A stretch of DNA of 40,000 nt, from positions 2,571,181 through 2,611,180 of the forward strand of contig NZ_CP072110.1 in the NCBI RefSeq assembly GCF_017638545.1, written 5' to 3'. Shown piece after piece: positions 1,652 to 24,430 of this stretch. The number at the start of each line of letters is the position of its first letter. Position 1 is the stretch's first letter. This DNA is from Psychrosphaera ytuae. Lineage in GTDB: Bacteria > Pseudomonadota > Gammaproteobacteria > Enterobacterales > Alteromonadaceae. The notes beneath the pieces are model-generated. The model was given only the letters and a program-made list of their open reading frames with translations, was not told where the DNA came from and made no database searches. The translations under genes were made by a program, and so were the position numbers.

Positions 1652-4618
1652 TTAATAATATTCCTTGATGTAACCATATGCTCTATCAAACAGCACTTGG
1701 TCTTTATGTAATTTGTATTTAAGCAAAGCTTTGCGTAGTGATTTTTGTACTTCTCGTTCACCACCTACCGTGTTTTGCCAGCCTGGGAAGTTGACTACCC
1801 TTACGATTGCATCAATGTCAGTAACTATGCGTTCTACAACCGTAGGGGTTTCATCAGTTTTAAGTTCAAGGAACAGTTCTGTAAGTGCAGCTTTTGGTGA
1901 TTTCTCTTGAAGTTCTTGTTCTAACTCTTTTTCAGCTTTAACCGTGTCTTTGGCTATAGCGCAGAGCTCTTTTACGAATTCAATTGAAGTGATTAAGCCT
2001 TTCTCCGCTTTGTCACGTAGCTCTTCTAAACGCTCACTTAACTTTTTAAAATTGGCGTTTCCGCCGTGCTTAACAAAGCGTTTAATTAGGTCTTTTTCGA
2101 GCTGTTTAATTTTCTTGGGATCAGGGTTGTTAAAGATGTTTTCGATAACATCTGCATCTAAAACAAACTCTTCTAGCGTATGCACTTCACCTACATGAAT
2201 GTTCTCGTGGATTAATTGTGTGGTTTGCGCACCCAGTGCCAACCACAGTATTTTACCTACGTTATCCGATGCCGGTTTTACCGATTCAAATACCTGAGCA
2301 AGCCATTTGTAGTCTTGGTTATAAACATCCAAGATATTATCAGGTGATAAAGACTCCCATAACTTAGCAAGGTACTTAAAGTCTTTGGCAAAGGCATCTT
2401 TCTTTTCATCGGTATTAATAGCGTTCTGTGCCGCTTCTAAGCCTTCAAACCCATCAAGAGTTCTATCTACCCCTTCAAAGTGTCTTAACGCATCAGCCAT
2501 TGCTTGTGGCAGTCGAGAACGTAAATCGCCAAGATTAGTAATAACCTGTTTAACACTTTGCTCGTCAAACTCTAGCGCTTTAGCGGCATCATCAAACACA
2601 CCAAAGTAATCAACAATACAACCAAATGTTTTTTGCGGATATAAACGGTTTGTGCGACAAATTGCCTGTAGTAACGTATGGTCTTTTAATGACTTGTCTA
2701 AGTACATGGTTTGACAAATCGGGGCATCAAAACCGGTTAACAGCTTTGCTGTCACAATGATGAATTTAAGCTCTGATGTTGCGTCATTGTACTCATCAAC
2801 AATCTTTTCTTGCTGGCTTTTATCTACCGCCCACTTTTGCTTAAACTCAAAATCATCGTTGGCAGTAGTCGAGATTACAACTTTACTGGCCTCTTCTGGG
2901 AAGTACTTATCTAATTCTTCTTTGTATTGCACACAAGCATGACGATCTGGTGTGACTATCATGCCTTTAAAACCATGAGGCGCTACTTTTGCATTAAAGT
3001 GTTCAGCGATGTCTTTTACGATTTTTTCAACACGTTCAGGTGATTTCAAAAACGCTGACATTTTTGCTGACTTCTTGTTTAGCTCATCGGCTTCTTCGTC
3101 AGTTAGCGCAGCACTTTCTTTAAACTCTTCAAACGCTTTATCTAATGCGTCTTTATCAACATGGACGTCAACCAGTCGTGGTTCAAAGTGCAGAGGTAGT
3201 GTTGCTTCATCTCGAATTGAATCATGGAAGGTATAACGTGACATATAGCCACCTCTATCTTCCTCTGAGCCAAACGCCCAAAAGGTATTTTTATCTGCCT
3301 TGTTAACTGGCGTACCGGTTAAACCAAACAAAAATGCATTGGGTAATGCCGCTCGCATTTGTCGTCCTAAATCACCTTCTTGAGTTCGGTGAGCCTCATC
3401 CACCAATAGAATGATGTTTTCTCTATCATTCATATTAGGTTTAGCGTCTCTGAATTTATGGATCATTGAAATAATGATCTTACGAGTATCACGCTCCAAC
3501 ATTTGTTGAAGTTCTTTAATGCTTTCTGTGCTTTCAACATTGGCCACATCTGCCGCATTAAAGGTTCCGCTTATTTGTGTATCAAGGTCGGTTCTATCAA
3601 CAAGAACAATTACGGTTGGGCTTTTAAGCTCTGGTGCTCGTCTTAGCTTTTGTGCAGCAAACACCATGAGTAATGATTTACCTGAGCCTTGGAAGTGCCA
3701 TATCAGGCCTTTCTTAATTTTGCCTTCAATAACACGCTGGACGATTTTATTCGCCCCTTCATACTGCTGAAAGCGAGGAATCACCTTAATGCGTTGTTTT
3801 TTCTTGTTAGTGGTAAACAAAGAGAAGTTACGCATAATATCGAGTAATCGAGCCGGGCTAAGCAAGTCTGTGAGCTCTTTACCAATTTCAGCTAAACCTA
3901 GTGCTTTAGATATTTGACTGTCATTTTCTTCTATACGCCATGGAGCCCAAAACTCTAACGGACAGCGAATCGCACCATAAAACAGCTCTTTGCCTTCTGT
4001 GGCAAAAGACAAAATGTTTGGCACAAACAATTGCGGTACGGCATTTTCGTAAATTTGATGGATGTCATGGGCACCATCTAACCAACTTACTGAGGGTCTA
4101 ATCGGTGTTTTGGCTTCACCAACCACCACAGGTATACCGTTAATCATTAATACCACATCAGGTATTTTGGTTTCTCTGTGGTGAATACGAAACTGGTTAG
4201 TTAATATATAATCGTTTCGAGTTAAGTCTTCAAAATCAATTAGCTTAACGGATACATGACGATTGTTTTCACCAAACGGCATGGTTTTTTCGCCAGTCAT
4301 CCAAGCGAAAAATTCTTCGTTGGCTTTAACCAGTCCAACCTGATTTACCGAAATTAAAATAGCTCGGAGTTTATGTATTACTTCATCCGCCAAGTTTGGG
4401 TTAGCCTCAATCTCAGGGTTAAGACGAATTAACGCCTTAATCAGCTGCGATTCAACTAATACTTCATTTACACCACGCCCTAGCTTTTCTGGCGGTTGGA
4501 ATTGCCACTTAACACCCAAAGTTGGTTGTGGCTCTGATACTTGATTGGCATTTAAATTAATGCCACTTAGTTGATGGATGATGTAGTGTTCCACACTATT
4601 TAATTCGGTAAATCCCAT
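1652..4618 (-). CDS. hsdR: Type I restriction enzyme R subunit (HsdR)
   Basis: 988 aa. SF2 helicase motifs are present: WHFQGSGKSLLMVF (Walker A), LLVDEAHRTQ (DEAH), FGLTGTPV (motif III) and QAICRTNR (motif VI). It has the long N-terminal nuclease region and C-terminal helical region typical of HsdR. It lies immediately downstream of hsdS with a 2-nt gap. Confidence 0.95.
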   Translation of the reverse strand: MGFTELNSVEHYIIHQLSGINLNANQVSEPQPTLGVKWQFQPPEKLGRGVNEVLVESQLIKALIRLNPEIEANPNLADEVIHKLRAILISVNQVGLVKANEEFFAWMTGEKTMPFGENNRHVSVKLIDFEDLTRNDYILTNQFRIHHRETKIPDVVLMINGIPVVVGEAKTPIRPSVSWLDGAHDIHQIYENAVPQLFVPNILSFATEGKELFYGAIRCPLEFWAPWRIEENDSQISKALGLAEIGKELTDLLSPARLLDIMRNFSLFTTNKKKQRIKVIPRFQQYEGANKIVQRVIEGKIKKGLIWHFQGSGKSLLMVFAAQKLRRAPELKSPTVIVLVDRTDLDTQISGTFNAADVANVESTESIKELQQMLERDTRKIIISMIHKFRDAKPNMNDRENIILLVDEAHRTQEGDLGRQMRAALPNAFLFGLTGTPVNKADKNTFWAFGSEEDRGGYMSRYTFHDSIRDEATLPLHFEPRLVDVHVDKDALDKAFEEFKESAALTDEEADELNKKSAKMSAFLKSPERVEKIVKDIAEHFNAKVAPHGFKGMIVTPDRHACVQYKEELDKYFPEEASKVVISTTANDDFEFKQKWAVDKSQQEKIVDEYNDATSELKFIIVTAKLLTGFDAPICQTMYLDKSLKDHTLLQAICRTNRLYPQKTFGCIVDYFGVFDDAAKALEFDEQSVKQVITNLGDLRSRLPQAMADALRHFEGVDRTLDGFEGLEAAQNAINTDEKKDAFAKDFKYLAKLWESLSPDNILDVYNQDYKWLAQVFESVKPASDNVGKILWLALGAQTTQLIHENIHVGEVHTLEEFVLDADVIENIFNNPDPKKIKQLEKDLIKRFVKHGGNANFKKLSERLEELRDKAEKGLITSIEFVKELCAIAKDTVKAEKELEQELQEKSPKAALTELFLELKTDETPTVVERIVTDIDAIVRVVNFPGWQNTVGGEREVQKSLRKALLKYKLHKDQVLFDRAYGYIKEYY

Positions 4619-4620
4619 AC

Positions 4621-5787
4621 CTAAAACACCTTGCTAATCAATATAGATTGTAATTTGAAAACAGACTCTATTTTTGTTTTTTGCGCATTAATATTTTTCT
4701 TTATTTTGTCTAGTTGATTCACAGTAGCTAATTGCTTCTCTTTAGACTCAGGGTATCGAACCTTAAAAGCTTTAAACGTATCAATGCTAAGATTTTTCTG
4801 AGCGCTTTCTGTTGCCAAGCCATCTACTATTTTTTGTTTGTAATTCAGATAATAATATAAGTATTCTTGGCTTATTTTTTCTGGCTTAGCTTGTATACCG
4901 ACTAAGCTATCAGTAAAGGCACTATCAAAACTCAATAACCCCACATACCCGATATTGGCAGCTATTGTCATAACAATTGTTCCTTTCGGAAACATTTTAC
5001 TAATAGATAAGCCAAGCTCATTCAATGTTTGCGAATAAGACGTTATATATTTATCAGAATTAACTACTTCACTTGTTTGAATGAATGGAATTTTCCCTCC
5101 ATAAAATTGAGGAGCATTCCTAGGGCGGTGTGCAAATTTTCCTCTTTGAACTGAGGCGACTTCCAAAATTCCTTCCTTATTAAACCCCTTACCATTAAAT
5201 AGCTCTTTCTCAGAACTATTAAAAAGGATTTGTAAGTTCGAAAGTAAATTGCGTTCAACTTCAAGTAACTGACTTACTTCTCTAAGCAATTTTAACAAGT
5301 ATTGTTGTTTCTCTATGTTTGGAAGTAGAAACTCAAAATTCGATAAATCTTTAAACTTCACTCTCGGAGACAGACCTCCTGCTGAATGAGTCACTGCATG
5401 ATCAAAAAACTTTTCATTGTTTACAACGAAAGGTAATAGTTCAGGAAGAAGCAATGCTTCTCTAGCTCGCATAACCGTGATATCGCCCGAACAAATACCT
5501 TCAAACCCGGCTTTGGCAGCCTTCTTCAAATAAGCTCGGCGGCGACCAAATAAAACGTCACCTTTACAAAACTTTTTGGTAAACGTTGTACTACCTTCAA
5601 TACTAGCAGATCGGCGTAAATTCATATCGCCACTATCAATATGCTCTAAACCTACAACATGCTCTATACCTTCAGTAACTGGGTCTTTAACTGACTCTTT
5701 TGGCTCAAACACCACATCGCCAAACTTTACTTTTTTCCAGTCTGATTTATCGATAGAAAAGTTTTTAATAGCTTCCATGTCGAACAT
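4621..5787 (-). CDS. hsdS: Type I restriction-modification specificity subunit (HsdS), two target-recognition domains
   Basis: 388 aa. Two TRD-like halves are separated by a helical spacer (QQYLLKLLREVSQLLEVERNLLSNLQILF) and end in a second coiled region (QLDKIKKNINAQKTKIESVFKLQSILISKVF). The start overlaps the hsdM stop by 1 nt (TAATG). Confidence 0.9.
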   Translation of the reverse strand: MFDMEAIKNFSIDKSDWKKVKFGDVVFEPKESVKDPVTEGIEHVVGLEHIDSGDMNLRRSASIEGSTTFTKKFCKGDVLFGRRRAYLKKAAKAGFEGICSGDITVMRAREALLLPELLPFVVNNEKFFDHAVTHSAGGLSPRVKFKDLSNFEFLLPNIEKQQYLLKLLREVSQLLEVERNLLSNLQILFNSSEKELFNGKGFNKEGILEVASVQRGKFAHRPRNAPQFYGGKIPFIQTSEVVNSDKYITSYSQTLNELGLSISKMFPKGTIVMTIAANIGYVGLLSFDSAFTDSLVGIQAKPEKISQEYLYYYLNYKQKIVDGLATESAQKNLSIDTFKAFKVRYPESKEKQLATVNQLDKIKKNINAQKTKIESVFKLQSILISKVF

Positions 5788-7253
5788 TACACTAGCTCCT
5801 TAAATAACTTTTCCATTGATTGTTTTAGGTTATCTGATGACTGTTGCCATTCTTGATAAGCTGCCGTAAAACAGGCTTCCTCGCTGCTAACTAAAGAGTC
5901 TGGTCGAACATAAAGGTTAATCGCCATATTAGCTTTTCTATCTAGAACCTCTTGTTTATCGACTAACAAAGCAAAGTTCTCTTCACTTTCAAAATTGCTA
6001 TACGCATTAAATATTTTGTCTATATGCACTTGGTCTAGGTAGCCAATGTTTTTATCCTGTCTAACTTCTTTTACCGCATTTATAAACAAGATTTTTCCCT
6101 TCTTATGATCTTCCTTGTTTGTTTTAGTAATCAACAAACATGCTTCCATTGGCGAGTTATAAAAGAGGTTTGGCCCCAAGCCGATTACACACTCAACTAA
6201 GTCTTGCTCAATCATTTTCTTGCGCATTTCTGTTTCAGCATCGCGGAACAAAATGCCGTGTGGCCAAAGTGATATTGAGCGGCCATTGCCTAAATCTAAG
6301 CTTTTTTGAATATGTTGCTGGAATGCATAATCGGCACAACCTTGCGGTGGTGTGCCCCACAAATTACGCCCATACGGATCATTTTCGAATGCGCCACGAT
6401 CCCATGATTTAATTGAGTATGGCGGGTTAGCTAGGATGACGTTAAACTTTTTAAGCTCATCGTTCTCTAGCAAGCCTGGATTAGACAAAGTATTGCCTCG
6501 CACAATATCGAACTCCTCGATGCCATGCATAAACATGTTCATACGAGCAATAGCGGAAGTTAACAGGTTAATTTCTTGACCATATAACTTCAGTGTTCGG
6601 TATTCTTTGCCTTCGTCTTTTAAATGCAAGGCGCAGTTAAGCAATAAACCACCAGAACCACAGGTTGGGTCATATACCGACTCACCTGGTTGTGGGTCCA
6701 TAATCATAGTCATCAGCTTAACTACTGTACGGTTGGTATAAAACTCCGCTGCGGTATGGCCGCTGTCATCAGCAAACTCTTTAATTAAGTACTCGTAAGC
6801 GTTACCTAATTTATCGTCAGGCACATTTTTAAGATTCAGTTTATGCTGCGAGTAATGCTCAATAAGGTTAGTGAGCATGGCATCAGAAAGTCGGTCTTTA
6901 TTGGTCCAACTGGCATCACCAAAAATACCATCTAAGGTATCCGGGTTAGCTTTTTCAATAGCACGCATAGCATTTTGCAGTGCTAAGCCTACGTTGGTTG
7001 TCACCTCACGAACATCTTGCCAGTGAGCACCAACCGGGATTTGGAAATGGTGGTTTTCTGCAAAAGCAGCATATTCTAAATCACCATCACTTTCCGCTAA
7101 GGCGTTGTCAAACTCTTCATCATATACATCTGAGATGCGTTTAAAGAACATTAACGGGAATATGTACTGCTTGTAATCACCCGCATCGATAGTGCCACGT
7201 AAAGTAGTTGCAGCACCCCAAAGGTATTTTTCTAATTCTTGTTGAGTCATCAT
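5787..7253 (-). CDS. hsdM: Type I restriction-modification methyltransferase subunit (HsdM), S-proximal copy
   Basis: 488 aa. It has the HsdM N-terminal domain (YIFPLMFFKRISDVYDEEF), SAM motif I (VYDPTCGSGGLL) and catalytic motif IV (ILANPPYSI). It carries FYTNRTV where the paralog has the canonical FYTPRSV. Its start overlaps the DUF262 gene stop by 4 nt (ATGA). Confidence 0.93.
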   Translation of the reverse strand: MMTQQELEKYLWGAATTLRGTIDAGDYKQYIFPLMFFKRISDVYDEEFDNALAESDGDLEYAAFAENHHFQIPVGAHWQDVREVTTNVGLALQNAMRAIEKANPDTLDGIFGDASWTNKDRLSDAMLTNLIEHYSQHKLNLKNVPDDKLGNAYEYLIKEFADDSGHTAAEFYTNRTVVKLMTMIMDPQPGESVYDPTCGSGGLLLNCALHLKDEGKEYRTLKLYGQEINLLTSAIARMNMFMHGIEEFDIVRGNTLSNPGLLENDELKKFNVILANPPYSIKSWDRGAFENDPYGRNLWGTPPQGCADYAFQQHIQKSLDLGNGRSISLWPHGILFRDAETEMRKKMIEQDLVECVIGLGPNLFYNSPMEACLLITKTNKEDHKKGKILFINAVKEVRQDKNIGYLDQVHIDKIFNAYSNFESEENFALLVDKQEVLDRKANMAINLYVRPDSLVSSEEACFTAAYQEWQQSSDNLKQSMEKLFKELV

Positions 7254-9037
7254 GCCTCAGCTACCTCTTCAGCGTCATGATGGACAGTAACATCTAGCAT
7301 TTTTATTAACGTTGATTTCAATTTCTTTCGTCTGTTTTCGTTAAATATTAAATAGTCTTCAAACTCTAATGATTCTTCCGAATCTATATAATGCTGTCTT
7401 AAAAAGCTTTGCTGATCAGATTCACTTTCATACTCGGCTTTTAGCCATTCTTTAAATGGTTTGTTGCTCTTTTCTATATTTGTAGTGGCATGCAATAGCT
7501 GCAAATTTGCTAATTCATTAACACTGTCGTTGTATCTTTCAATTTGATCTTCACTGAAACCAAGTTTTCTCATATTACGTTTTTTGAACAGAGATTTTGG
7601 ATGTATATGATCTTGGTGATATTTGAAAGTGTAATTCAGCCCTGGGTATAGCAAAGTGAGTGCGCAATATGTTTTAGCTTTGCCGTATTGGAGGTCTAAT
7701 AAACTTTCTATATCGTCTTCAGTGAAGCTGATAGTTTTTCGTCGTCCACGGTAGTAAGCAATTGTTTCTGCGAGAGGGAATTTTCCTAAATTATCGTTGA
7801 TAAGTTCTCTCATTGCTGGATAAATATTATCCGGTTGCCCACCAAATGTCCCCTTAAGAAGCACTCGTGCTAACCACTCCCTAATAGCCTTTCTATCTTT
7901 TTCTCGTTCAGCACTATGCAATATTTTGCTATCTAAACGATTTTTGTAAATGAAATAAGCAATGGGGATTATGGTGTTCGTAGCAAGTAAATTATCTCTG
8001 CTGTATCCAATTTTTGACACTAGCTCTATCGCTAGCTTTAATGCACCTGACGCTTCATCCCAGTTTTCCTCAATTTTAGCCATGTTAGCTTTGTTGAAGT
8101 TATCAACTTTAAATTTAACATCTTTAAAATCGGCTAAAACTAAGCAGGCCTTTAGCACCAGGTCTTTATTGAACGAGAAGCCATCACCTATCTGGTTGAT
8201 ATCATCAACAAAATCATGAATAACTTCTCTAGCATCTTTTTCTTGCCATTGAGCTGTCGCAATTGAAAGCAATAAATCAGAATAACTTAACTTTGTTCCG
8301 CCACTGTTTATTCGTATAAATATCTGTAGCACTTTATCAAGCTCTTCACCTTTTTCTTCGTAATAGCTTATCGTGCCTTTTTGGTGCACTACGTTAAAAA
8401 ACTCATTTAATGTGCGCAACGCAAATGTAGTACTTTCTTGAGAATATTTAGATGTATCAGTTAAGCCCTCTAACATCATGTATTCCATGACTTTACTAAC
8501 ATCACTAAACTCTAAAATTTTTCCACATTCAAACCAGTAATAGCCCTCTTTTGGCTTGGCATCACTCTCTGTAAGAAACTTAAAATCATATTCAACTTCA
8601 ATGTCATCAGAACTTTTAAGCAGGTTTAAGTACAACTTTTTCTTAGGGTAAGCATGTGAACTACTTTTTCTGTAATAAGGCATCTTTTTAGAATAAGAGC
8701 CTGTTAGCGCCACATACATTGAAGTCATACGTTGTTGACCATCAAGTAAAGCAATTATGTCTTCTTCATCAGACAGATCAGCTTTTAAATTATGGCGACT
8801 ATCTTTTTCATGGTAGTTCTTTAGAAATTCATAGAACTGAAAATCCTTTACTTTATTCTTATCAACTTTCCAGAACAAAAAGGTACTAATTGGATAGTCT
8901 CGCATTAAAGAATCAAACAACGTCTCTATTTGACCCGTATCCCAGACAAACTCTCGCTGTATTGCCGGCAAAACATAATGACGTTTTCTGATATTGTTTA
9001 TTGCGTCTTTTATGGTAATTGGTATCTGATACGCCAT
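7250..9037 (-). CDS. DUF262/DUF1524 (GmrSD-like) putative modification-dependent (type IV) restriction nuclease
   Basis: 595 aa. The N-terminal DUF262 signatures are LPAIQREFVW and LLDGQQRMTS (DGQQR box). The C-terminal His-Me/HNH-like DUF1524 signature is YHQDHIHPKS...NLQLLHATTNIEKSNKP. The gene is embedded between the two hsdM genes with zero spacing or overlap. Confidence 0.8.
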   Translation of the reverse strand: MAYQIPITIKDAINNIRKRHYVLPAIQREFVWDTGQIETLFDSLMRDYPISTFLFWKVDKNKVKDFQFYEFLKNYHEKDSRHNLKADLSDEEDIIALLDGQQRMTSMYVALTGSYSKKMPYYRKSSSHAYPKKKLYLNLLKSSDDIEVEYDFKFLTESDAKPKEGYYWFECGKILEFSDVSKVMEYMMLEGLTDTSKYSQESTTFALRTLNEFFNVVHQKGTISYYEEKGEELDKVLQIFIRINSGGTKLSYSDLLLSIATAQWQEKDAREVIHDFVDDINQIGDGFSFNKDLVLKACLVLADFKDVKFKVDNFNKANMAKIEENWDEASGALKLAIELVSKIGYSRDNLLATNTIIPIAYFIYKNRLDSKILHSAEREKDRKAIREWLARVLLKGTFGGQPDNIYPAMRELINDNLGKFPLAETIAYYRGRRKTISFTEDDIESLLDLQYGKAKTYCALTLLYPGLNYTFKYHQDHIHPKSLFKKRNMRKLGFSEDQIERYNDSVNELANLQLLHATTNIEKSNKPFKEWLKAEYESESDQQSFLRQHYIDSEESLEFEDYLIFNENRRKKLKSTLIKMLDVTVHHDAEEVAEA

Positions 9038-10516
9038 TTATAAAAATCCTTTTAAAACTTGCTTAAATTTTTCTTCAGCTTCAAGGCTTGCTTGCCATGC
9101 TTGTTTTAAATCAGCCATAGCTTCTTCAACAGACGGTAAGTTGTCTTCAATGATCTTTTCTACATAAAGTGGAATATTAAGGTTAAAGTCGTTTTCTTTT
9201 AACTCTTCCATTGAAGCGACTTTCACGTAGTTCTCGACATCTTGATAGTCGTGATACCAATCGTAAATTTGTTGAACGTGATTTGGCTCTAAGAAGTTTT
9301 GAGCTCGGCCAACTCGAATTTGATCAGAGGCATCAATAAACAACACTTTACCTTTCTTATCAGCCGGTTTATTTTTTTTAAAAACCATGACACAAGCGGC
9401 GAGTTGAGTTCCGTAGAATACATTTGGTCCTAAACCGATTACCGCTTCTAATAAATCGCTTTCTAGCAGTTGTTTTCGGATTTTCCCTTCGGCAGCTTTT
9501 CTAAATAACGCACCGTGCGGTAATACAACAGTCATACGGCCGGTGCTGTTCATTGACTTAACCATGTGTTGCACCCACGCCATATCACCATTGCCTTTTG
9601 GTGGTACCCCAGCAATGTTACGCCCATAAGGATCATTAGCCCAAGTATCAGCGCCCCAATCTTTTAACGAGAATGGTGGGTTGGCAATGACACAGTCAAA
9701 GGTTTTAAGGCCATCCGCCTCAAAGAACCCCGGATGACGCAATGTATCGCCACGCAATATTTCAAAGTCTTCTATGCCATGTAAGAACATATTCATACGA
9801 GCAATTGAACTTGAAGTTAGGTTCTTTTCTTGCCCAAAGAGTTTTAGCGTTCGATAATCTTCTTTATTGTCTTTAAGGTGATCAACACACTCAAGCAACA
9901 TACCGCCTGTACCACACGCCGGATCGTAGATAGTTTCACCTTCGTGCGGATCTAGGATTAAGCCAAGAAGATGTACCACAGAGCGAGGCGTGTAGAACTC
10001 CCCAGCTTTTTTATTGGTTAAGTCAGCGAAGTGTTTAATCAAGTATTCGTAGGCGTTACCCAACATGTCTGGGTCAACATTTTGATTTCCTAGGGTGTAC
10101 TGAGAAAAGTGTTCAATTAGGTTTATCAGCAATTCATCCGATAGCTTATTTTTGTTGCTCCACTGTGCATCACCAAAAATTCCGTATAAAAATTCTTGGT
10201 TAGCTTGTTCTATACCTCGCAGAGCATTTTCAATTGCAGAACCTACATTGGTTGTGATCTCACGTACATCTTTCCAATGGCAACCGTCAGGTATTTCAAA
10301 GCGGTGAAATTCTGGTAATGCTGCGTACTCTTCATCACCATCTGATTCTTCTAGAGCAATACGAAACTCTTCATCGTATACATCGGAAATACGCTTAAAG
10401 AAAAGTAATGGGAATATGTATACTTTGAAGTCAGAGGCATCAACTGGACCTTTTAATATCCAGGCAGCTTTCGATAAGTATTGCTCTAGTTGGGAAAGGG
10501 TTATTTTTGTCGTCAT
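9038..10516 (-). CDS. hsdM: Type I restriction-modification methyltransferase subunit (HsdM), promoter-proximal copy
   Basis: 492 aa. Motifs present are YIFPLLFFKRISDVYDEEF, GEFYTPRSV, IYDPACGTGGML (motif I) and VIANPPFSL (motif IV). It aligns full length with the other HsdM but differs by many substitutions. It is the first gene of the operon, preceded by a ~230-bp non-coding region. Confidence 0.93.
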   Translation of the reverse strand: MTTKITLSQLEQYLSKAAWILKGPVDASDFKVYIFPLLFFKRISDVYDEEFRIALEESDGDEEYAALPEFHRFEIPDGCHWKDVREITTNVGSAIENALRGIEQANQEFLYGIFGDAQWSNKNKLSDELLINLIEHFSQYTLGNQNVDPDMLGNAYEYLIKHFADLTNKKAGEFYTPRSVVHLLGLILDPHEGETIYDPACGTGGMLLECVDHLKDNKEDYRTLKLFGQEKNLTSSSIARMNMFLHGIEDFEILRGDTLRHPGFFEADGLKTFDCVIANPPFSLKDWGADTWANDPYGRNIAGVPPKGNGDMAWVQHMVKSMNSTGRMTVVLPHGALFRKAAEGKIRKQLLESDLLEAVIGLGPNVFYGTQLAACVMVFKKNKPADKKGKVLFIDASDQIRVGRAQNFLEPNHVQQIYDWYHDYQDVENYVKVASMEELKENDFNLNIPLYVEKIIEDNLPSVEEAMADLKQAWQASLEAEEKFKQVLKGFL

Positions 10517-15363: not shown

Positions 15364-15576
15364 CTAAAAATTTTTGGATTGAAGCCAAGCGTTGACATGC
15401 TTGAACTGCCAATAAGAGCGTTGATTTTGGATAAAAGTAGGCTGCGGAAATTTACCGGTTTTCACCCATCGTCCCAGTGTTGACCGGCTAATATTAAGCA
15501 GTTTCTGTATATCAGGCTTGCGCATTAGTCTTTCATCTTCGATGTAAAGCTCTAGGTGATTTAAAACCTTATCCAT
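15364..15576 (-). CDS. alpA: AlpA-family (prophage CP4-57-type) HTH transcriptional regulator
   Basis: 70 aa. LMRKPDIQKLLNISRSTLGRWVKTGKFPQPTFIQNQRSYWQFKHVNAWL matches the AlpA pattern: HTH, then G-x-FP-x-P, then W-x-x-x-x-V-x-x-W. Confidence 0.8.
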   Translation of the reverse strand: MDKVLNHLELYIEDERLMRKPDIQKLLNISRSTLGRWVKTGKFPQPTFIQNQRSYWQFKHVNAWLQSKNF

Positions 15577-15802
15577 TGCTCACCTCATAGTTATTAATTA
15601 CTTCACGTGATTGCACCCACTCGACAAGCTCTGATAAAAGCCATGCTACACTTGAACCTGAGGGAGTTAACTTTCTCCGTTTGGGAAATAGCCCTTTCTG
15701 CTCTAGTTTCCATGCCTGTACGCGGGATATTGAAGTTATACTTTTACGCTCCGGCTCTTTTACTAATCGATCAAATTGGAATGTCATAACTTGTTCTTTC
15801 AT
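15569..15802 (-). CDS. Second AlpA-like HTH protein (start uncertain: ATG 15802 or 15787; the ORF-track start at 15865 is a GTG inside a hairpin)
   Basis: RLVKEPERKSITSISRVQAWKLEQKGLFPKRRKLTPSGSSVAWLLSELVEWVQSR fits the AlpA pattern. Its stop overlaps the downstream alpA start by 8 nt (ATGGATAA). Confidence 0.65.
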   Translation of the reverse strand: MKEQVMTFQFDRLVKEPERKSITSISRVQAWKLEQKGLFPKRRKLTPSGSSVAWLLSELVEWVQSREVINNYEVSNG

Positions 15803-15853
15803 GTTTTCTCTCGTTACTTTGTGTTTGCGAGAATACTGACAAGTTCTAGCCTT

Positions 15854-15881
15854 AAAAACACCCACACCACAGTGTGGTGTG
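15854..15881 (-). terminator. Rho-independent terminator or attenuator-like hairpin between the 271-aa gene and the AlpA-like genes
   Basis: The minus strand reads CACACCAC-ACT-GTGGTGTG (8-bp stem, 3-nt loop) followed by GGTGTTTTTAAGG. It begins 11 nt after the stop of the 271-aa gene. Confidence 0.5.
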
Positions 15882-17085: not shown

Positions 17086-17559
17086 GTGAATAAATTTTTG
17101 ATGAACATCTTGTTAATAGCTGGTTTTTGGTCGCCTGTTGCATTGGCGTCGGCGACCCCAGACAGTTTTGAGTTAATTTGTGACAAGATAGACGTGATTG
17201 GTAGGTCATTTGATGAGTCACGAGTTTCTAGCTCTTACATTAAATGGGATAAAAAAAAGAAGTCTTTATCTATCAAAAGTGAAGAGTTAAATGAATTTCA
17301 TGGCGAGTTAAACGGTAACTACAATGATATTTTTGTTCGTCAGGAGAACATGGATTCCTATCCCAGGATTTATTTCACTTTTAAATCTAATCCATCTTTT
17401 GACAAGTGGGAGAATGGCCACGGCACACGATTTGTTAGTACGCAGGTTGATATTTCACCTGAATCAAAACGAGCTCTATTCAATTTAACGTCATTTAATC
17501 AAACAGGTGGAGTTATTTCAAACGTGACAACGAAACGAGCTTGGTGCAAATTACGGTAG
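17086..17559 (+). CDS. Hypothetical secreted protein (157 aa), the only plus-strand gene in the island
   Basis: The signal-peptide-like N-terminus MNKFLMNILLIAGFWSPVALA|SATP has an A-L-A cleavage motif. The start is GTG 17086 (SD TAAGGA upstream) or ATG 17098. No lipobox. Confidence 0.6.
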   Translation: MNKFLMNILLIAGFWSPVALASATPDSFELICDKIDVIGRSFDESRVSSSYIKWDKKKKSLSIKSEELNEFHGELNGNYNDIFVRQENMDSYPRIYFTFKSNPSFDKWENGHGTRFVSTQVDISPESKRALFNLTSFNQTGGVISNVTTKRAWCKLR

Positions 17560-17831: not shown

Positions 17832-18653
17832 TTACTCCCCGGGATCAAATGTGTAATCTTCATAATACCTTAAGATTTTATAAAGCTTGGGAACCCCGCT
17901 TATAGTCTGAACTTCAATATCTACTACGTAGGCTAATTCATGCCATTGCTTATTAAAACTGTTATGTCCATGTAACATTGCTTCTTTTACTGCATTATTT
18001 TCAAAAATTACTTTAGTAGGATTCTTTCTAATAGCTTCAACAATTGCTTTGTCACCTGTTTCTGAGTTGGAATCAAACTTCGTTTGATACCATACAAGAA
18101 CTTTCTTTTTATGAATGTGATCGGCTGGCTCGTCTATGTTGGCAATTTTTCGATTAATAAAGTTTTGAGCTGCATTTGCTTGTTCAGAACTTAAGATCAA
18201 TTGATTAATAACGGTGGCGTTGTCACTAGCGGAAATAACTAATTGAGAACCTGCGTCTTTTGCAACCGGCTCAATAATATTTTTCCATTGCAAAAGATCT
18301 TTCTTAGTTAAATCCTGAGGTGGGTTTTTAGCCTTACCTAGAAACCAATCAATAATATTAGAAGCAGTTGCAACCCATTGATAAAGTGAACCTCCTTGCC
18401 AAAGAAGAGGAACAAGAGGCGCAGCTTTAGTGACCAATTCTACTACTATTGACCCAGATCGCACTTCTTTAATTAGAAGCTCACTTGATATGTCACAGTC
18501 TTCTGAAGACTCATGCTCAACAAACCGTTGAAATTGAGAACTAAGGTCCAACAATGAAACAGTTAAATCAGTCAAATTAACTGGCCTTTCATTATTAATC
18601 TTAACTTCTAGTTTTTTATCAAAATCGATGTCGATAGTATTCATTGGCTCCAT
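17832..18653 (-). CDS. Hypothetical protein, third gene of the SieB-like/Ntn-hydrolase operon (273 aa from ATG 18653; alternative GTG 18728 gives 298 aa)
   Basis: ATG 18653 is preceded by TGAGGT and a 6-nt spacer. GTG 18728 has no SD but lies 3 nt after the upstream stop. No recognisable motif and no Walker A. Confidence 0.6.
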   Translation of the reverse strand: MEPMNTIDIDFDKKLEVKINNERPVNLTDLTVSLLDLSSQFQRFVEHESSEDCDISSELLIKEVRSGSIVVELVTKAAPLVPLLWQGGSLYQWVATASNIIDWFLGKAKNPPQDLTKKDLLQWKNIIEPVAKDAGSQLVISASDNATVINQLILSSEQANAAQNFINRKIANIDEPADHIHKKKVLVWYQTKFDSNSETGDKAIVEAIRKNPTKVIFENNAVKEAMLHGHNSFNKQWHELAYVVDIEVQTISGVPKLYKILRYYEDYTFDPGE

Positions 18654-18731
18654 GCTTAACCTCAATAATGTTTGGTTAAAAGGGGGCTTAAGCCCGTTCC
18701 AGTCTGTACACCGGACAGTTTGAGTCACTTG

Positions 18732-19535
18732 TTAGGAAATATTGGTGTGTTTGACTATTTTCATGGTGTCTGGATCTAAAACACCGTATTCAGACTGTTC
18801 GTAGTCAAGCAGCGGCCTGCCACTAAGATTTATATTTCCAAAATCTTTATTGGGCCAGAAAATTGCAAAAGGCTTGGCATTGGAGTACTTATATATTTTG
18901 GTTACCTGTGGTGCCCCACCAATTTTATCGTAGGTATTCTCGCGCAACATATCTCGAAGCACCTCTAATGGCTCCATATCAAATCCACCCTCCTTTATTT
19001 TGCCTCTTTCTTTCAGCAACCTAACCAGGTTTTCCTTAAACGCGTCTTCGTAATCGCCTGTAATGGCGAGAAGTTTATCTTGATTTGGCCCGGTCCAGCT
19101 TCGAGAGGGCCTGAAGGTGAATCGTTTAATACTTGCGTCGTAATGTAATAACCATGACCGGAAAGCTCCTAATTTCCAAGACCAACCAGCTACTAAAAAA
19201 GTCGTGTCCGGTTCGTTCTTAAGTCCTACTGGCAAATCGTGAACGAGTGTAACCATGTTATTTAGTATGCGCAGTAGGTGACCTTTAAGATCTGTAATAT
19301 CCATTGCTCGGTTCAGTAATTTAGGATGTTGTGCTACAGCTGATTGCATTTGGAGCATTATTGGGTAGGCATACATTGTATCGCCTGCAAAACAAACTAC
19401 CACGTCATTTCTCGGGAGGATTCTGATTTTAGGGCAACAGTCCCAACGACAGCCAAAGCTCAGGCGGCTATCGGTAGCGACAATAAGCTCTTCGATCGAT
19501 TCTACTTTTCTTATCCATGCTAAAGATATAGTCAT
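18732..19535 (-). CDS. Proteasome-beta/HslV-like N-terminal-nucleophile (Thr) hydrolase-like protein
   Basis: 267 aa beginning Met-Thr. The blocks are MTISLAW, ELIVATDSRLSFG, CPKIRILPRNDVVVCFAGDTMYAYPIMLQMQSAV, TFLVAGWS, LLAITGDYEDAF and IGGAPQVTKIY. They align in order with the HslV blocks [58 protein letters not shown] and LIAIGSGGPYA. Equivalents of the Thr1/Asp17/Lys33 triad are present (T2, D22, K36). By-eye comparison only. Confidence 0.5.
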   Translation of the reverse strand: MTISLAWIRKVESIEELIVATDSRLSFGCRWDCCPKIRILPRNDVVVCFAGDTMYAYPIMLQMQSAVAQHPKLLNRAMDITDLKGHLLRILNNMVTLVHDLPVGLKNEPDTTFLVAGWSWKLGAFRSWLLHYDASIKRFTFRPSRSWTGPNQDKLLAITGDYEDAFKENLVRLLKERGKIKEGGFDMEPLEVLRDMLRENTYDKIGGAPQVTKIYKYSNAKPFAIFWPNKDFGNINLSGRPLLDYEQSEYGVLDPDTMKIVKHTNIS

Positions 19536-19567
19536 ATTTTGCCCAATTTAAACAGGTTGTTTTGCTT

Positions 19568-20065
19568 TTACTTAATCAGTTCAGGGTTCTTATTTAAATA
19601 ATCCCATGCCCATGGCTGAATGTTGTATGGAAACACATCGTGGTAATGAGCCAGGTTTGAAGCTCTTCGAATAACCATTGCTGCCTCTAACTCTTTTGCT
19701 ACACCATTAGAGTATTTGATTGAGGTTGTTCGCGTGTTCCTGTCTATATATTCAGATAATAGTTTTTTTTCTTCTACCGTAAGAGCATGCAAGCGTTGTT
19801 GATAACTTTTTAATTTGAAGTGCCATTTTATTTTTTGTGAAATCCATTTAAAAGCTGGGAAAATGCTCTCAGACAAAAGTACTGATATTGAAATCAGCCA
19901 AATTAGAGAAATCCATATTTGAAGACTATTTTTCGCTTCAATTAAAGCTAATTTATAAAGGAATTCATCCCCTGAAAAGAGTATTGTTGAGGTAATAACA
20001 CAAAGGATGAAAGCTTGTTTTCCAGACAACTTTAACCATTCGAATATTTGCTTAACGTCCATCAT
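19568..20065 (-). CDS. SieB-like (superinfection exclusion B family) small membrane protein
   Basis: 165 aa with a strong SD (AAGGAGAG). It has two hydrophobic helices (AFILCVITSTILFSG and IWISLIWLISISVLL). The C-terminal pattern LTVEEKKLLSEYIDRNTRTT..GVAKELEAAMVIRR..PWAWDYLNKNPELI is one I recognise from SieB-family proteins, from memory only. Confidence 0.45.
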   Translation of the reverse strand: MMDVKQIFEWLKLSGKQAFILCVITSTILFSGDEFLYKLALIEAKNSLQIWISLIWLISISVLLSESIFPAFKWISQKIKWHFKLKSYQQRLHALTVEEKKLLSEYIDRNTRTTSIKYSNGVAKELEAAMVIRRASNLAHYHDVFPYNIQPWAWDYLNKNPELIK

Positions 20066-20415
20066 GATCTCTCCTTAATGCATGACATTGTATTAACCGG
20101 GACTCATTTTAAGTCGTACGTTAAAAAAACTTTGCCCATTCATAAAAAATATAAGATGTTTTAACACTTTAGCTGAATTAATTCTATTAGTTAAAACCTT
20201 TGTCGGTGAAGAAACAGAGACTTCCTTATAAAGAACCTCACACCGTTTTCATTAATCTAATCAGCATTATCTTTGCATAAACCATACACATATGTATTCC
20301 ACAAACTAAAAGCTAACGACTCTATCGAAAAAATTAAGTGAAATGCTCGCTGTAGCTGCCTAATTTCACACATCCGGGTAATTGAAAATATTACGTCAAA
20401 ATTATACTAATACAT

Positions 20416-21921
20416 TTATTGTATTAATTTTCGTAGCTCTGCGATCTTTGACTTGTACATATTAATATCTTCATCTTTGAATTGACTTCCTGAACGGTCT
20501 AACCTTTCTGTCAGTTTTGCTATAGCGCTTTCAAACTCTATAAAGGATTTACTTTTCAGCTTACCGAACTTAAAAGCTGATTTGCTTATTTGAAACCCAA
20601 GTGACTTTGAAATTAACTCAGTTTTATTGAGAGCGTCGTTGAAACTTTTTTTTGCGGCTTTATCTGATTTAGTGCGAATAGGTGATAGTTGTGTAAACGA
20701 GTTAATTTTATTGCTTTTAGTTTTTGTCGGGGGCTCAATTAAATCATTTGATTTTTTAATTTCAGTTTTTGTTTCTTCTTGGGAAAGCACTTCACTTTTG
20801 GCTCTTTTAGACAATCTTTGTAGAACAATGTTAGTTTCAGTGGTTTCTGTTGAAGTTGATGGAGATGTTTGTAAAGATTCTCCTGACAGTAAAGTCAATT
20901 CGTGTTGTCTGTATAGTGCTAATTCTTCCTCATTCTGTAGCTGAATTTCTGCAATCAAAGCATTTACTTCATTAATATTTGGCTCGGGACTACTAGAAAC
21001 TTCTTGTTGGCTTTTAGCATCGATTAAGTCCGAGTCTATAACCCCTATGTCTACAGTTTTATTTGTCAGTTTTTTTTCATTCGTTAAGGTGAATTTGTTG
21101 AGCCAATTTCGCTCGGGGTTGTATCCGTTTTTGTTTGAGTCACCCTGGCCATCTTTGGTTTGATTGAATCCATATTTGTAGGTTTCAAATGTGTCTATGT
21201 ATTCAAGCTCTTTTGAATCTAATAAATCAATAGTCGTCTCTTCAACCAGCTCAAATGTTAGGTTGTTAGAGTATGGTTGTTTTGACAGCCATAATGTTTG
21301 CATTGCTGGATTATGATGAATTCCTTTTTTAAGGTCCCTTATATGTGCTTTTAAACGCTTTCCAACATTTTTCGATTGTCCTATATACGTTTTAAAATCT
21401 TTGCCGTAAATGCAATAAATGCCAATTTTGCCATTTAATTTATTGCAGAAGGACTCGAGGTTTCGCTTTGGGGCGAAAGATTTATTAGTAATAGGGTGTT
21501 TCGCTCTCGGTGATAATGGTGCAGAGATAGGCTTTTTTTTGTTGGTAGTTTTGTTGGGGGATTTGGTTGGTTTCAAAGGTGGCTGAGACTCTTCTGTTCC
21601 CAGATATTCAAAAACATTAATAAACGCCTTTCCTACCACGTAGGTTAGTGACGTTTTTGGCTCAATTTCACAATAGATGGAATCAAACTGATCAATATAC
21701 TCTTGATATAGTTCGTACTCTGCTTCGTCTATGAAACCGAGTAGTGTTCTACTACCCCAAACATACACGTTAGCTTTCTTCTGATTTTTATTGTTAGGGG
21801 TGATATAGCAACGAGTTTTTTTAGTATATAAATTATTAAACTCTGACTCTGTAAGATCCTGGACCTGTTTACACCATGTCGTGCCGTTAATTAAGAATGA
21901 TTTAGGCAGGTTGAACTCCAT
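20416..21921 (-). CDS. GIY-YIG nuclease-domain protein with an unknown N-terminal domain and a long low-complexity/coiled C-terminal tail
   Basis: 501 aa. Residues ~165-255 (coords ~21157-21429) read GIYCIYGKDFKTYIGQSKNVGKRLKAHIRDLKKGIHHNPAMQTLW...FELVEE...ELEYIDTFETYKYGFNQT. This matches the I-TevI/Seg-type GIY-YIG pattern: GIY, YIG, R, H-x-x-x-L-x-x-G-x-H-x-N, E, N. Residues ~110-160 and ~260-440 are K/S/T/P/E-rich low complexity. The last ~60 aa are amphipathic and coiled-coil-like. Confidence 0.7.
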   Translation of the reverse strand: MEFNLPKSFLINGTTWCKQVQDLTESEFNNLYTKKTRCYITPNNKNQKKANVYVWGSRTLLGFIDEAEYELYQEYIDQFDSIYCEIEPKTSLTYVVGKAFINVFEYLGTEESQPPLKPTKSPNKTTNKKKPISAPLSPRAKHPITNKSFAPKRNLESFCNKLNGKIGIYCIYGKDFKTYIGQSKNVGKRLKAHIRDLKKGIHHNPAMQTLWLSKQPYSNNLTFELVEETTIDLLDSKELEYIDTFETYKYGFNQTKDGQGDSNKNGYNPERNWLNKFTLTNEKKLTNKTVDIGVIDSDLIDAKSQQEVSSSPEPNINEVNALIAEIQLQNEEELALYRQHELTLLSGESLQTSPSTSTETTETNIVLQRLSKRAKSEVLSQEETKTEIKKSNDLIEPPTKTKSNKINSFTQLSPIRTKSDKAAKKSFNDALNKTELISKSLGFQISKSAFKFGKLKSKSFIEFESAIAKLTERLDRSGSQFKDEDINMYKSKIAELRKLIQ

Positions 21922-22155: not shown

Positions 22156-23376
22156 TTAAAGAAAAGGCTCTATGACTTCAGATAGTTTTTGTAACGCTTT
22201 TTTTCTGTCATCAAAATAGTCGTGTCTGTTATAAACACCTTCAACACCCGTGATTTTGTGGTTGAGACACCGTTCTGCAATATCGCTAGGCGTGCCTAGT
22301 TCAGAAAGTAGACTTCTAAATGTTCGCCTAATATCGTGAATGGTAAACTTTTCAATGCCAGCCCGTATTAAGTAGTTGGGATAAGGTTGTTTTTTACTAT
22401 CTACTTTCTCTCCAAATAATTTAGACAATGCATGGTTTAAGGTGTCATCAGAAATGTATGCTCTTCGTTTGCTAGCTCTTCGTGCTGGAAGTAAGTAATC
22501 GGAACCGGCAGCTCTCACTTTCAATTCAATCAAAAATTTGATTGCTAAGTCTGAAAGTGGAATTTGAATTGCTGAACTTGTTTTATTTCTGTTCTCATCC
22601 AAACTCCAAACTTTATTCTCAAGATCAAATTCTTCCCATTTTGCTGCTGTAAGCTCTGTTTTTCTGACGCCCAGACAAAGTAAGAGAGCCATAGCAATAT
22701 AATTATCGCGGGTAAATATCTGTGATTGTTGACGGAATACTTCAAATGTCACTTTAAGCTCATCTAATGATAGGGCTCTCGTCCTACTTTTTTCAGTACC
22801 ACCAGCGTCTGATAATTCGAAAGCTGCAGCGGGGTTACCACCTTTTAAATCAAGCTTAATTGCGTGATTAAATAACTTCTTTAATAAACGAAGAGTTTTA
22901 TTTGCTATTGACGGTCGATTACTTTTGGCGACGGTTTGAATTATATCTCTAATGTCTCTGGCATTAACACGTTCAATAGCAAGCTCACCAATATATGGTT
23001 TAACTTCGTTTTCGTAATATCGTTTTTCTATATGAGGATATTTTAGCTTTCCTGAGCGGCCATTGAACCAATCTTCAAATAATTCATTTACAACCCTAAT
23101 TGATTGAGACTTACCTCTGACTTTTTCAGCTAAAGGATCTATGCCTTCTCTAACTTGCTGAATTATTAAAGCGGCTTGGAGCTTGGCTATAGCTAAGCTC
23201 ATTGCAGGGTAAGCCCCGCCAGCAATTCGCATAAACTTTCTTTTTCCATTGATGCTGTAACGAACTTCCCAGTAAGCCTTTCCTAATGTTTGAACTCTAA
23301 TGTAAAGGTTATCAGCAACAGCCTTTCTTCCTTTGGTCTCTGATTTTATAAAGGCTTTAATTTGTTTATCGTTCAT
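22156..23376 (-). CDS. int: P4-type tyrosine integrase
   Basis: 406 aa. The N-terminal DUF4102-like arm-binding region is LYIRVQTLGKAYWEVRYSINGKRKFMRIAG. Catalytic-domain motifs are LLCLGVRKTEL (Arg), FTIHDIRRTFRS (H-x-x-R) and GVYNRHDY (Tyr). Confidence 0.92.
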   Translation of the reverse strand: MNDKQIKAFIKSETKGRKAVADNLYIRVQTLGKAYWEVRYSINGKRKFMRIAGGAYPAMSLAIAKLQAALIIQQVREGIDPLAEKVRGKSQSIRVVNELFEDWFNGRSGKLKYPHIEKRYYENEVKPYIGELAIERVNARDIRDIIQTVAKSNRPSIANKTLRLLKKLFNHAIKLDLKGGNPAAAFELSDAGGTEKSRTRALSLDELKVTFEVFRQQSQIFTRDNYIAMALLLCLGVRKTELTAAKWEEFDLENKVWSLDENRNKTSSAIQIPLSDLAIKFLIELKVRAAGSDYLLPARRASKRRAYISDDTLNHALSKLFGEKVDSKKQPYPNYLIRAGIEKFTIHDIRRTFRSLLSELGTPSDIAERCLNHKITGVEGVYNRHDYFDDRKKALQKLSEVIEPFL

Positions 23377-23566: not shown

Positions 23567-24430
23567 CTACTCTATGTTTTGGATCTGCTCTCTCATCTGC
23601 TCTATCAACACCTTCAATTCAACCGCTGCGTTAGTGATTTCTGCACTGATTGATTTAGATGCTAGGGTGTTGGATTCGCGATTAAACTCTTGCATCATGA
23701 AGTCGAGACGTCGACCGCAGGCGCCGCCTTTTTTCATGATTTTTTGAGTTTCGCTGACGTGTGATTTTAGTCGGTCGATTTCTTCGGCTACGTCGGTTTT
23801 TTGGGCCAAATAAATTAGCTCTTGTTCTAGGCGTGCTTCGTCGATATCGACTTTGGCTTCGGCAAGTTTATTGGTGATGCGCTCTTTTTGCCAAGTCATG
23901 ATGGCTGGCATGTGTTCTTCGACAATGGCCGCTTGCTCTAAGATCGCATCTAGGCGTGTTTCGATCATGGTTTTGAGGTTGGCTCCCTCGCTAGCACGTG
24001 CTTCGATGAAGTCACGGGTTAAACCGTCAAAGCCGGCCATAATGGCTTTTTGGATCTCGTCCATGTCGGTTTCTTCGGCTTCCATCACGCCTGGCCAGCG
24101 CAGGATATCCACTGGATTTAATTCACCGCCTGCAGCTTCGTTGCTGACCCAATTGGCGCTGTCGATAAGTTGTTTGGCTAATGATTTGTTGATGGTGAGT
24201 TGGCTCACAGCGGCTGGGTTAGCAGTGTATTTTAAGAAAACTTCGACCTTACCGCGTTGTAATTTTTTGCGAAGGCGCTCGCGAAGAACTGCCTCTAAAG
24301 AGCGAAATTGCTCCGGCAGTCTGATGTAAGTCTCTAAGTATCGTTGGTTTACAGAGCGGATTTCCCACACTGCTGTGCCCCAATCGCCTTTTACTTCACT
24401 TCTGGCGTACGCCGTCATACTTTGGATCAC
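23567..24430 (-). CDS. yicC: YicC-family protein (stress-induced endoribonuclease YicC)
   Basis: 287 aa. MIQSMTAYARSEVKGDWGTAVWEIRSVNQRYLETYIRLPEQFRSLE is near-colinear with E. coli YicC (MIRSMTAYARREIKGEWGSATWEMRSVNQRYLETYFRLPEQFRSLE). Confidence 0.93.
   Translation of the reverse strand: MIQSMTAYARSEVKGDWGTAVWEIRSVNQRYLETYIRLPEQFRSLEAVLRERLRKKLQRGKVEVFLKYTANPAAVSQLTINKSLAKQLIDSANWVSNEAAGGELNPVDILRWPGVMEAEETDMDEIQKAIMAGFDGLTRDFIEARASEGANLKTMIETRLDAILEQAAIVEEHMPAIMTWQKERITNKLAEAKVDIDEARLEQELIYLAQKTDVAEEIDRLKSHVSETQKIMKKGGACGRRLDFMMQEFNRESNTLASKSISAEITNAAVELKVLIEQMREQIQNIE

Follow-up and report, generated by a model that had tools for sequence, protein, structure and literature searches.

A SieB-family gene, a predicted proteasome-like threonine hydrolase and a phrog_9226 member as probably separate cargo genes in an integrative island of Psychrosphaera ytuae

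The window analyzed here is a stretch of 40,000 nt from the chromosome of Psychrosphaera ytuae, and all positions given below refer to it. At 17,832-20,065 it carries three adjacent genes which encode a SieB-family membrane protein (gene 1), a predicted stand-alone threonine hydrolase of the N-terminal nucleophile (Ntn) type resembling proteasome beta subunits (gene 2), and a conserved protein of the family phrog_9226 (gene 3). A sequence-only reading of this DNA had put them forward as one three-gene defence system. No two of the three families were found together among 63 external loci, and the trio is probably not a functional three-part system but a set of single-gene cargo modules, each acquired separately, in the variable region next to the integrase of an island. 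With the trio shown not to be a system, effort on a three-gene model is saved, and the lead which remains is narrower and testable: a family with a predicted proteasome fold and an intact Thr/Asp/Lys site, for which there is neither a Pfam model nor a partner ATPase. The genes and their leader are as follows.

19568..20065, minus strand: gene 1, SieB-family membrane protein, 165 aa (open reading frame 20065->19568, match to PF14163)
18732..19535, minus strand: gene 2, predicted stand-alone proteasome-beta-like Ntn threonine hydrolase, 267 aa (WP_208831412.1, J1N51_11520)
17832..18653, minus strand: gene 3, conserved protein, phrog_9226 member, 273 aa (alternative GTG start at 18728, giving 298 aa)
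20066..20415, minus strand: AT-rich leader 5' of the SieB-like gene, 350 nt, with a strong Shine-Dalgarno sequence and one weak promoter-like site

Arrangement and co-occurrence of the three genes

Three co-directional open reading frames (ORFs) on the minus strand were recovered by ORF analysis exactly where the sequence-only reading had placed them, and the spacers, claimed as 32 nt and 3-78 nt, were measured as 32 nt between genes 1 and 2 and as 3 or 78 nt between genes 2 and 3, depending on the start chosen for the latter. The most likely start of gene 3 is the ATG at 18653, giving 273 aa, since GAGG is located 6 nt before it and the homologs are of about this length. In the public annotation gene 1 is a "superinfection exclusion B family protein", gene 2 a "hypothetical protein", and gene 3 corresponds to J1N51_11515; records with 100% identity to all three proteins exist in Psychrosphaera ytuae.

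The upstream region agreed with its earlier description as a 350-bp AT-rich stretch with a strong Shine-Dalgarno sequence: the leader measures 350 nt with a GC content of 31.7%, and AAGGAG precedes the start codon of gene 1 (ATG) by 5 nt. One promoter-like site (TTCACC-18-TAGAAT, 20210->20181) was identified in the leader; it carries no weight because such sites are no commoner there than in shuffled sequence. The leader had no Rfam match, and no terminator was predicted between the three genes. With genes so closely spaced and no terminator predicted among them, co-transcription of the trio in the Psychrosphaera ytuae island is plausible, and the genes may be read from one promoter. This is a property of that island and not proof of a system.

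The distribution of the three families was determined at external loci. Forty-five Ntn-family loci were gathered from viral contigs and from genomes that span many phyla, and the addition of contigs with close relatives of each trio protein brought the set to 61. When the six-frame translations of these loci were searched with three family profile hidden Markov models (HMMs), 48 contained the Ntn family only, nine the gene 3 family only and four SieB only. In two further loci an Ntn copy 89% identical to gene 2 (238/267) adjoins a NACHT gene, while SieB and the third gene are absent. Co-occurrence, which had been named beforehand as the refuting test, therefore came out at 0 of the 63 external loci (61 searched with HMMs and the two with the 89%-identical copy). 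A copy of gene 3 at 92% identity adjoins a T5orf172 gene, which precedes it (locus L055), and copies of SieB at 63-85% identity were located beside integrases with other cargo or beside unrelated genes. Clustering of the neighbors at the 45 Ntn loci placed nearly all flanking genes in singleton clusters.

Because the families fail to co-occur elsewhere, even as 89-92%-identical copies, the trio is not a conserved system, and in that form the proposal is already refuted. One cooperative abortive-infection system, with the SieB-like protein as membrane sensor or effector, the proteasome-like protein as protease and the third protein as adaptor, would suit the co-directional and tightly spaced genes, the single AT-rich leader with its strong Shine-Dalgarno sequence, the lack of a predicted internal terminator and the position of the trio in a defence-rich island. 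It is nevertheless very improbable: apart from the external loci, the GC content at third codon positions differs across the trio (0.319, 0.414 and 0.270 for genes 1, 2 and 3, respectively), and the Ntn and gene 3 families each occur alone. SieB of phages lambda and P22 likewise works as a single gene.

Predicted fold and active site of the 267-aa protein

The assignment of gene 2 to the proteasome-family Ntn threonine hydrolases was borne out by structure prediction. The AlphaFold2 model, obtained from a 40-sequence alignment, had a predicted local distance difference test score (pLDDT) of 88.6 and a predicted template modeling score of 0.88. In a Foldseek search against the PDB the top 50 matches were all 20S beta subunits (yeast, Mycobacterium, mammals), with E-values of 3e-9 to 7e-8 and template modeling (TM) scores to the target of 0.52-0.70; the best was 1ryp_K (E 3.4e-9, probability 1.0). 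Based on this model, the gene 2 product is predicted to have the four-layer alpha-beta-beta-alpha Ntn fold of a proteasome beta subunit.

The protein begins with Met-Thr and is without a propeptide, because only four codons lie between the ATG and the upstream in-frame stop. The Met-Thr start and the T2/D22/K36 triad which had been recognized in the sequence turned out to be near-invariant across about 150 divergent relatives. All 40 aligned homologs have T2, D22, K36 and G51, and in a set of 150 representatives (50% identity) these residues are conserved in 124/125, 133/133, 134/134 and 136/137 of the aligned sequences, respectively. An MT start was present in 111 of the 121 representatives with an aligned N-terminus, and profile position 1 aligns to residue 1 in nearly all 150. 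In the C-terminal tail G239, R240 and E246 are conserved.

Since threonine is a permissive second residue, methionine aminopeptidase would be expected to remove Met1 and expose Thr2 as the nucleophile, as in HslV. Asp22 and Lys36 would complete the triad, and Gly51 would form the oxyanion hole. Such an enzyme might cleave a peptide bond in a specific target, or transfer it in the manner of a connectase, without an ATP-dependent unfoldase, and the conserved tail could serve target recognition or assembly.

The protein had also been described as lining up block for block with HslV and 20S beta subunits. This holds for the structure, by the Foldseek probability, but not for the sequence, where the hhalign probability to E. 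coli HslV was 1.2%. Membership of the HslV/20S families at the sequence level was rejected, as the Pfam, NCBIfam, PDB profile and hhalign results were all below significance. No match was obtained in Pfam (E <= 1, including Proteasome, PF00227), PADLOC or PHROGs; the NCBIfam HslV model TIGR03692 gave a weak N-terminal similarity (E 0.015, 15 bits against a cut-off of 157.75), and a PDB profile search gave E 0.51 to an HslV chain. In hhalign, T. acidophilum beta scored a probability of 0.4%; this comparison and the one with HslV serve as a register check only. The non-significant alignment to HslV pairs D22 with D17, K36 with K33 and FAGDT with FAGGT.

A C-terminal extension of about 90 aa, as claimed at first, is an overestimate. 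The predicted order of strands and helices follows the beta-subunit core in full, as far as about residue 226, and by this topology the additional length probably consists of a tail of about 40 aa and about 35 aa of internal insertions.

Compared with HslV (ClpQ) and 20S beta subunits, gene 2 shares the predicted Ntn fold, the equivalents of Asp17, Lys33 and Gly47 and, in all likelihood, an N-terminal threonine freed by removal of Met1 as in HslV. It differs from them in lying below all sequence-family thresholds, in its insertions and conserved tail, and in belonging to a family which is mobile and sporadic, not core. In contrast to HslVU, it has no HslU or other AAA+ partner: a motif search found no Walker A in the three trio proteins, as had been stated, nor was there one in the GIY-YIG neighbor described below, and no neighbor recurs in the 45 loci.

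Distribution and possible role of the Ntn family

The family comprises 822 clusters at 50% identity (E <= 1e-3), nearly all of single-domain proteins of 260-300 aa. None of its members bears a functional name in the sources searched, and it has no Pfam model. In 39/39 loci the Ntn gene had a lower GC content than DNA at distances above 4 kb, with a mean difference of -10 points (Wilcoxon p = 5e-8); in its immediate surroundings the GC content was also reduced, by 3.5 points on average. The Ntn gene is a horizontally moving, stand-alone accessory gene with a tendency to settle in DNA that is mobile or rich in defence genes.

Among the 150 nearest neighbors, PADLOC matches were to LmuB, GajA/AriA/PtuA-like ATPases, AbiLi and HEC-01A, and Pfam matches to ArdC, DUF4238, phage terminase and portal, plus housekeeping genes. 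TIR, CAP12-PCTIR_TIR, FRG and SNF2 genes are located near the Ntn gene in Pseudomonas, and DUF6602 and DUF4062 genes are neighbors elsewhere. On an IncFIB conjugative plasmid of Klebsiella the Ntn gene is beside a pair of genes for a GTPase and a LeoA-family dynamin-like GTPase, a pair which we take to resemble the Eleos defence system. A conjugative plasmid of Agrobacterium carries it beside an AAA ATPase and helicase pair and a PIN gene, a Rhodococcus plasmid with two tyrosine recombinases, an HNH gene and a CHAT gene, and a Lactiplantibacillus plasmid with IS21 and a group II intron.

One of the 89%-identical copies is found on the metagenome contig NODE_56 (ERZ27337199, L062:5127-9789), in an islet of 44-45% GC within a genome of 60-66% GC. 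Besides the Ntn gene, the islet, which is inserted between genes for an MFS transporter and a globin, contains an ORF of 105 aa, a lambda Ea47-like gene and a gene whose product is a NACHT protein of 739 aa.

In four viral contigs the Ntn gene follows the gene for the gpA-type large terminase and precedes that for the lambda-type portal; an S49 protease gene and the gene for the major head protein come after it. This is a moron position in the head module. The insertion in these contigs (L042:5798-13184, IMG/VR UViG_3300039331_000277; L043-L045) is between an 82-aa ORF following the large terminase gene and the portal gene, and the Ntn gene has a GC content of 30-35% in phage DNA of 45-46%. 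A role as prohead protease was considered and rejected, because the contigs already encode their own S49 protease after the portal and most members of the family lie outside prophage structural modules.

A 39%-identical homolog was identified in 128 of 5426 complete E. coli genomes (2.4%), in a decayed P4/CP4-57-like island (AlpA/DUF927/integrase) near ypjA. In E. coli SCU-482 (NZ_CP053247.1, L067:12001-12840; also L064) an in-frame stop replaces the conserved Met187 of FDMEPFE, and RefSeq annotates just the first 191 aa. This copy is either a fixed pseudogene or something odder.

This distribution marks the Ntn gene as a horizontally moving conflict gene, for either defence or counter-defence, and gene 2 is a candidate stand-alone protease of one or the other kind. 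The more specific proposal, that the 267-aa family consists of widespread threonine hydrolases which act alone as a phage-conflict module, either as single-gene defence cleaving a phage or host target or as a counter-defence protease, is offered tentatively, as one possibility. If gene 2 is a defence or counter-defence protease, it would represent a new catalytic class in bacterial immunity and the first proteasome-family enzyme assigned to it.

A narrower version, in which the gene serves mobile elements for counter-defence or host takeover, through degradation of host immune or regulatory proteins, seems rather unlikely. It would account for the carriage of the gene as a moron in phage head modules and on conjugative plasmids, and it agrees with the structural relatives of gene 2 in many phages (BFVD) and with the phage-borne proteasome homologs PPH and AAH (Fuchs et al., PMC8665760). 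Yet most copies are chromosomal, beside defence genes and outside recognizable prophages; protein searches with gene 2 or an actinobacterial homolog found no family member in isolated phage genomes (50,697 records), and morons are themselves often defence genes. That the gene encodes a common housekeeping protease, derived from HslV or Anbu as a diverged paralog and located in the island by chance, is hardly credible. The weak N-terminal similarity to HslV and the metabolic neighbors at some loci would fit such a protein; the sporadic occurrence, with a premature stop in the few E. coli genomes that have the gene, the low GC content relative to the host at every locus compared, the presence on plasmids and phages and the lack of an HslU-like partner would not.

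Several points weigh against separate cargo modules and a conflict gene as the explanation. The 45 Ntn loci were retrieved by pattern and are biased to sequences which keep two peptide motifs, some of them have housekeeping or metabolic neighbors, and the association with defence genes is qualitative. The E. coli lineage shows the Ntn gene to be dispensable there, because of the in-frame stop. In Psychrosphaera ytuae itself, the spacing of 32 and 78 nt without a terminator makes co-expression and a lineage-limited cooperation of the three proteins possible.

Fuchs, Alva and Lupas (2021, PMC8665760) described 22 uncharacterized proteasome-like subfamilies, some of them phage-borne, including BPH, Anbu, PPH, RPC, DPH, DAH, GPH and PMI-1 to PMI-6, and reported no informative or conserved genomic context or AAA+ partner for the new ones. 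The Ntn family resembles these in being divergent and stand-alone, with an intact triad, no propeptide, no AAA+ partner and some phage-borne members. It may be one of them, by description DAH or PMI-4 (phylum spread, additional C-terminal sequence). The accessions retrieved here do not coincide with the representatives in that paper (HDY66466.1, WP_085249540.1 and others), and the long insertion after H2 of PMI-4 is not evident in the model of gene 2, where loop 98-110 is of 13 aa. The paper makes no link to defence islands or AT-rich islets, in contrast to the one seen here, and in a full-text literature search no publication was found that connects proteasome-like proteins with phage defence. 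A role in phage conflict, if true, would give the proteasome homologs catalogued in 2021 their first functional context.

The flanking cargo genes and the island

Gene 1 is a clear member of the SieB family, as the sequence-only reading had recognized: the Pfam model PF14163 is matched with E 1.4e-32 and 112.8 bits (cut-off 26), in an alignment that takes in positions 3-147 of the 147 in the profile. The protein has a conserved C-terminal domain, and its C-terminal half shares 40% identity with YopH of SPbeta, which is annotated as SieB family. The two N-terminal hydrophobic helices noted earlier correspond to peaks at about residues 18-36 and 46-72, based on hydropathy alone (Kyte-Doolittle, 19-residue windows >1.6). 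No defence model in PADLOC-DB v2.0.0 was matched. By homology, this inner-membrane protein would abort the lytic growth of superinfecting phages. It resembles SieB of lambda and P22 in fitting the full-length family model, in its N-terminal membrane helices and in being a single gene on an integrated mobile element, and differs in riding a P4/CP4-57-like island, not a lambdoid prophage.

Gene 3 had been regarded as an orphan with no recognizable motif. It did remain without a fold match: the AlphaFold2 model was of moderate quality (pLDDT 78.4), the structure search gave no PDB match at E <= 1e-3, and there was no PDB profile match. A phage S-adenosylmethionine lyase (6zm9; E 0.012, TM 0.23/0.40) was rejected as its fold, being a generic alpha/beta resemblance. 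An orphan it is not, as it belongs to phrog_9226, a phage protein family without an assigned function (E 2.7e-48 over residues 31-288 of the 298-aa form, nearly the full length), and has at least 250 homologs, mostly of 272-274 aa. In contrast to a phage family proper, most of these homologs are bacterial or metagenomic and in unrelated contexts; one phage homolog, in Bordetella phage PHB09, adjoins a BrnT toxin gene. The search of PADLOC-DB v2.0.0 gave a marginal PtuA match (E 0.0034). The product is probably an alpha/beta protein, present in bacteria and some phages, and would constitute a third independent module.

The surrounding region is probably a CP4-57/P4-like integrative island with cargo next to the integrase gene. 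Its further features in the window are as follows.

22156..23376, minus strand: tyrosine integrase at the right end of the island (Pfam Arm-DNA-bind_3, Phage_int_M, Phage_integrase)
20416..21921, minus strand: GIY-YIG domain protein, 501 aa, homing-endonuclease-like, outside the trio (Pfam GIY-YIG, E 8.6e-7)
15364..15865, minus strand: two AlpA-family regulators, 70 aa and 98 aa (Phage_AlpA, E 1.1e-12 and 1.6e-4; HTH_17)
1652..10516, minus strand: defence cargo, comprising type I restriction-modification (HsdR, HsdS, HsdM), GmrSD/HEC-05 and a second HsdM (Pfam and PADLOC)

The integrase gene abuts the housekeeping gene yicC (23567-24430), which is followed by deaD, rph and a phosphoribosyltransferase gene. 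The low-GC region ends at the integrase: the GC content is 37.6% up to 23.5 kb and 44% beyond. A YagK/YfjJ_C / Rep-like gene was also identified by Pfam. The left end of the island is probably outside the window; searches for att repeats, tRNA genes and Rfam families gave no match. The DNA of the trio region had no match to phages.

P4-like satellites and integrative islands reportedly possess defence hotspots. The present island is comparable, with cargo located between the integrase and the core and SieB beside type I restriction-modification and GmrSD/HEC-05. The element had been called satellite-like; the integrase-proximal cargo of a P4/CP4-57-like island stands, and the status of a P4-type satellite is doubtful. 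No psu, delta, sid or capsid-redirecting genes were identified, and no att sites were found in the window.

The matches of the defence cargo were REase_I (E 1.4e-132), Specificity_I (2.4e-90), MTase_I (1.8e-206 and 2.9e-166) and HEC-05 (7.4e-229). The GmrSD-type gene (HEC-05; 7250-9037, minus strand) is embedded between the two HsdM genes (5787-7253 and 9038-10516), which share a stretch of 151 nt at 70% identity (6401-6551 and 9655-9805). The GIY-YIG gene is directly upstream of the trio; in its product the domain is central (residues 166-247) with long, low-complexity flanks rich in Lys, Ser and Thr, and PADLOC gave matches to HEase models (E 1e-7) and weak ones to PDC-S14.

A 157-aa ORF (17086-17559, plus strand) with a signal-peptide-like N-terminus, MNKFLMNILLIAGFWSPVALASA, runs toward the end of the trio, in convergent orientation, and could be an additional cargo gene; no match was found in Pfam, PADLOC, NCBIfam or PHROGs. 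In the core of the island a 493-aa protein (12263-13744, minus strand) matched phrog_5902 (E 1e-108); weaker matches were to a helicase domain and to terminase-large-subunit PHROGs. Based on these similarities it may be the replication or packaging ATPase of the element.

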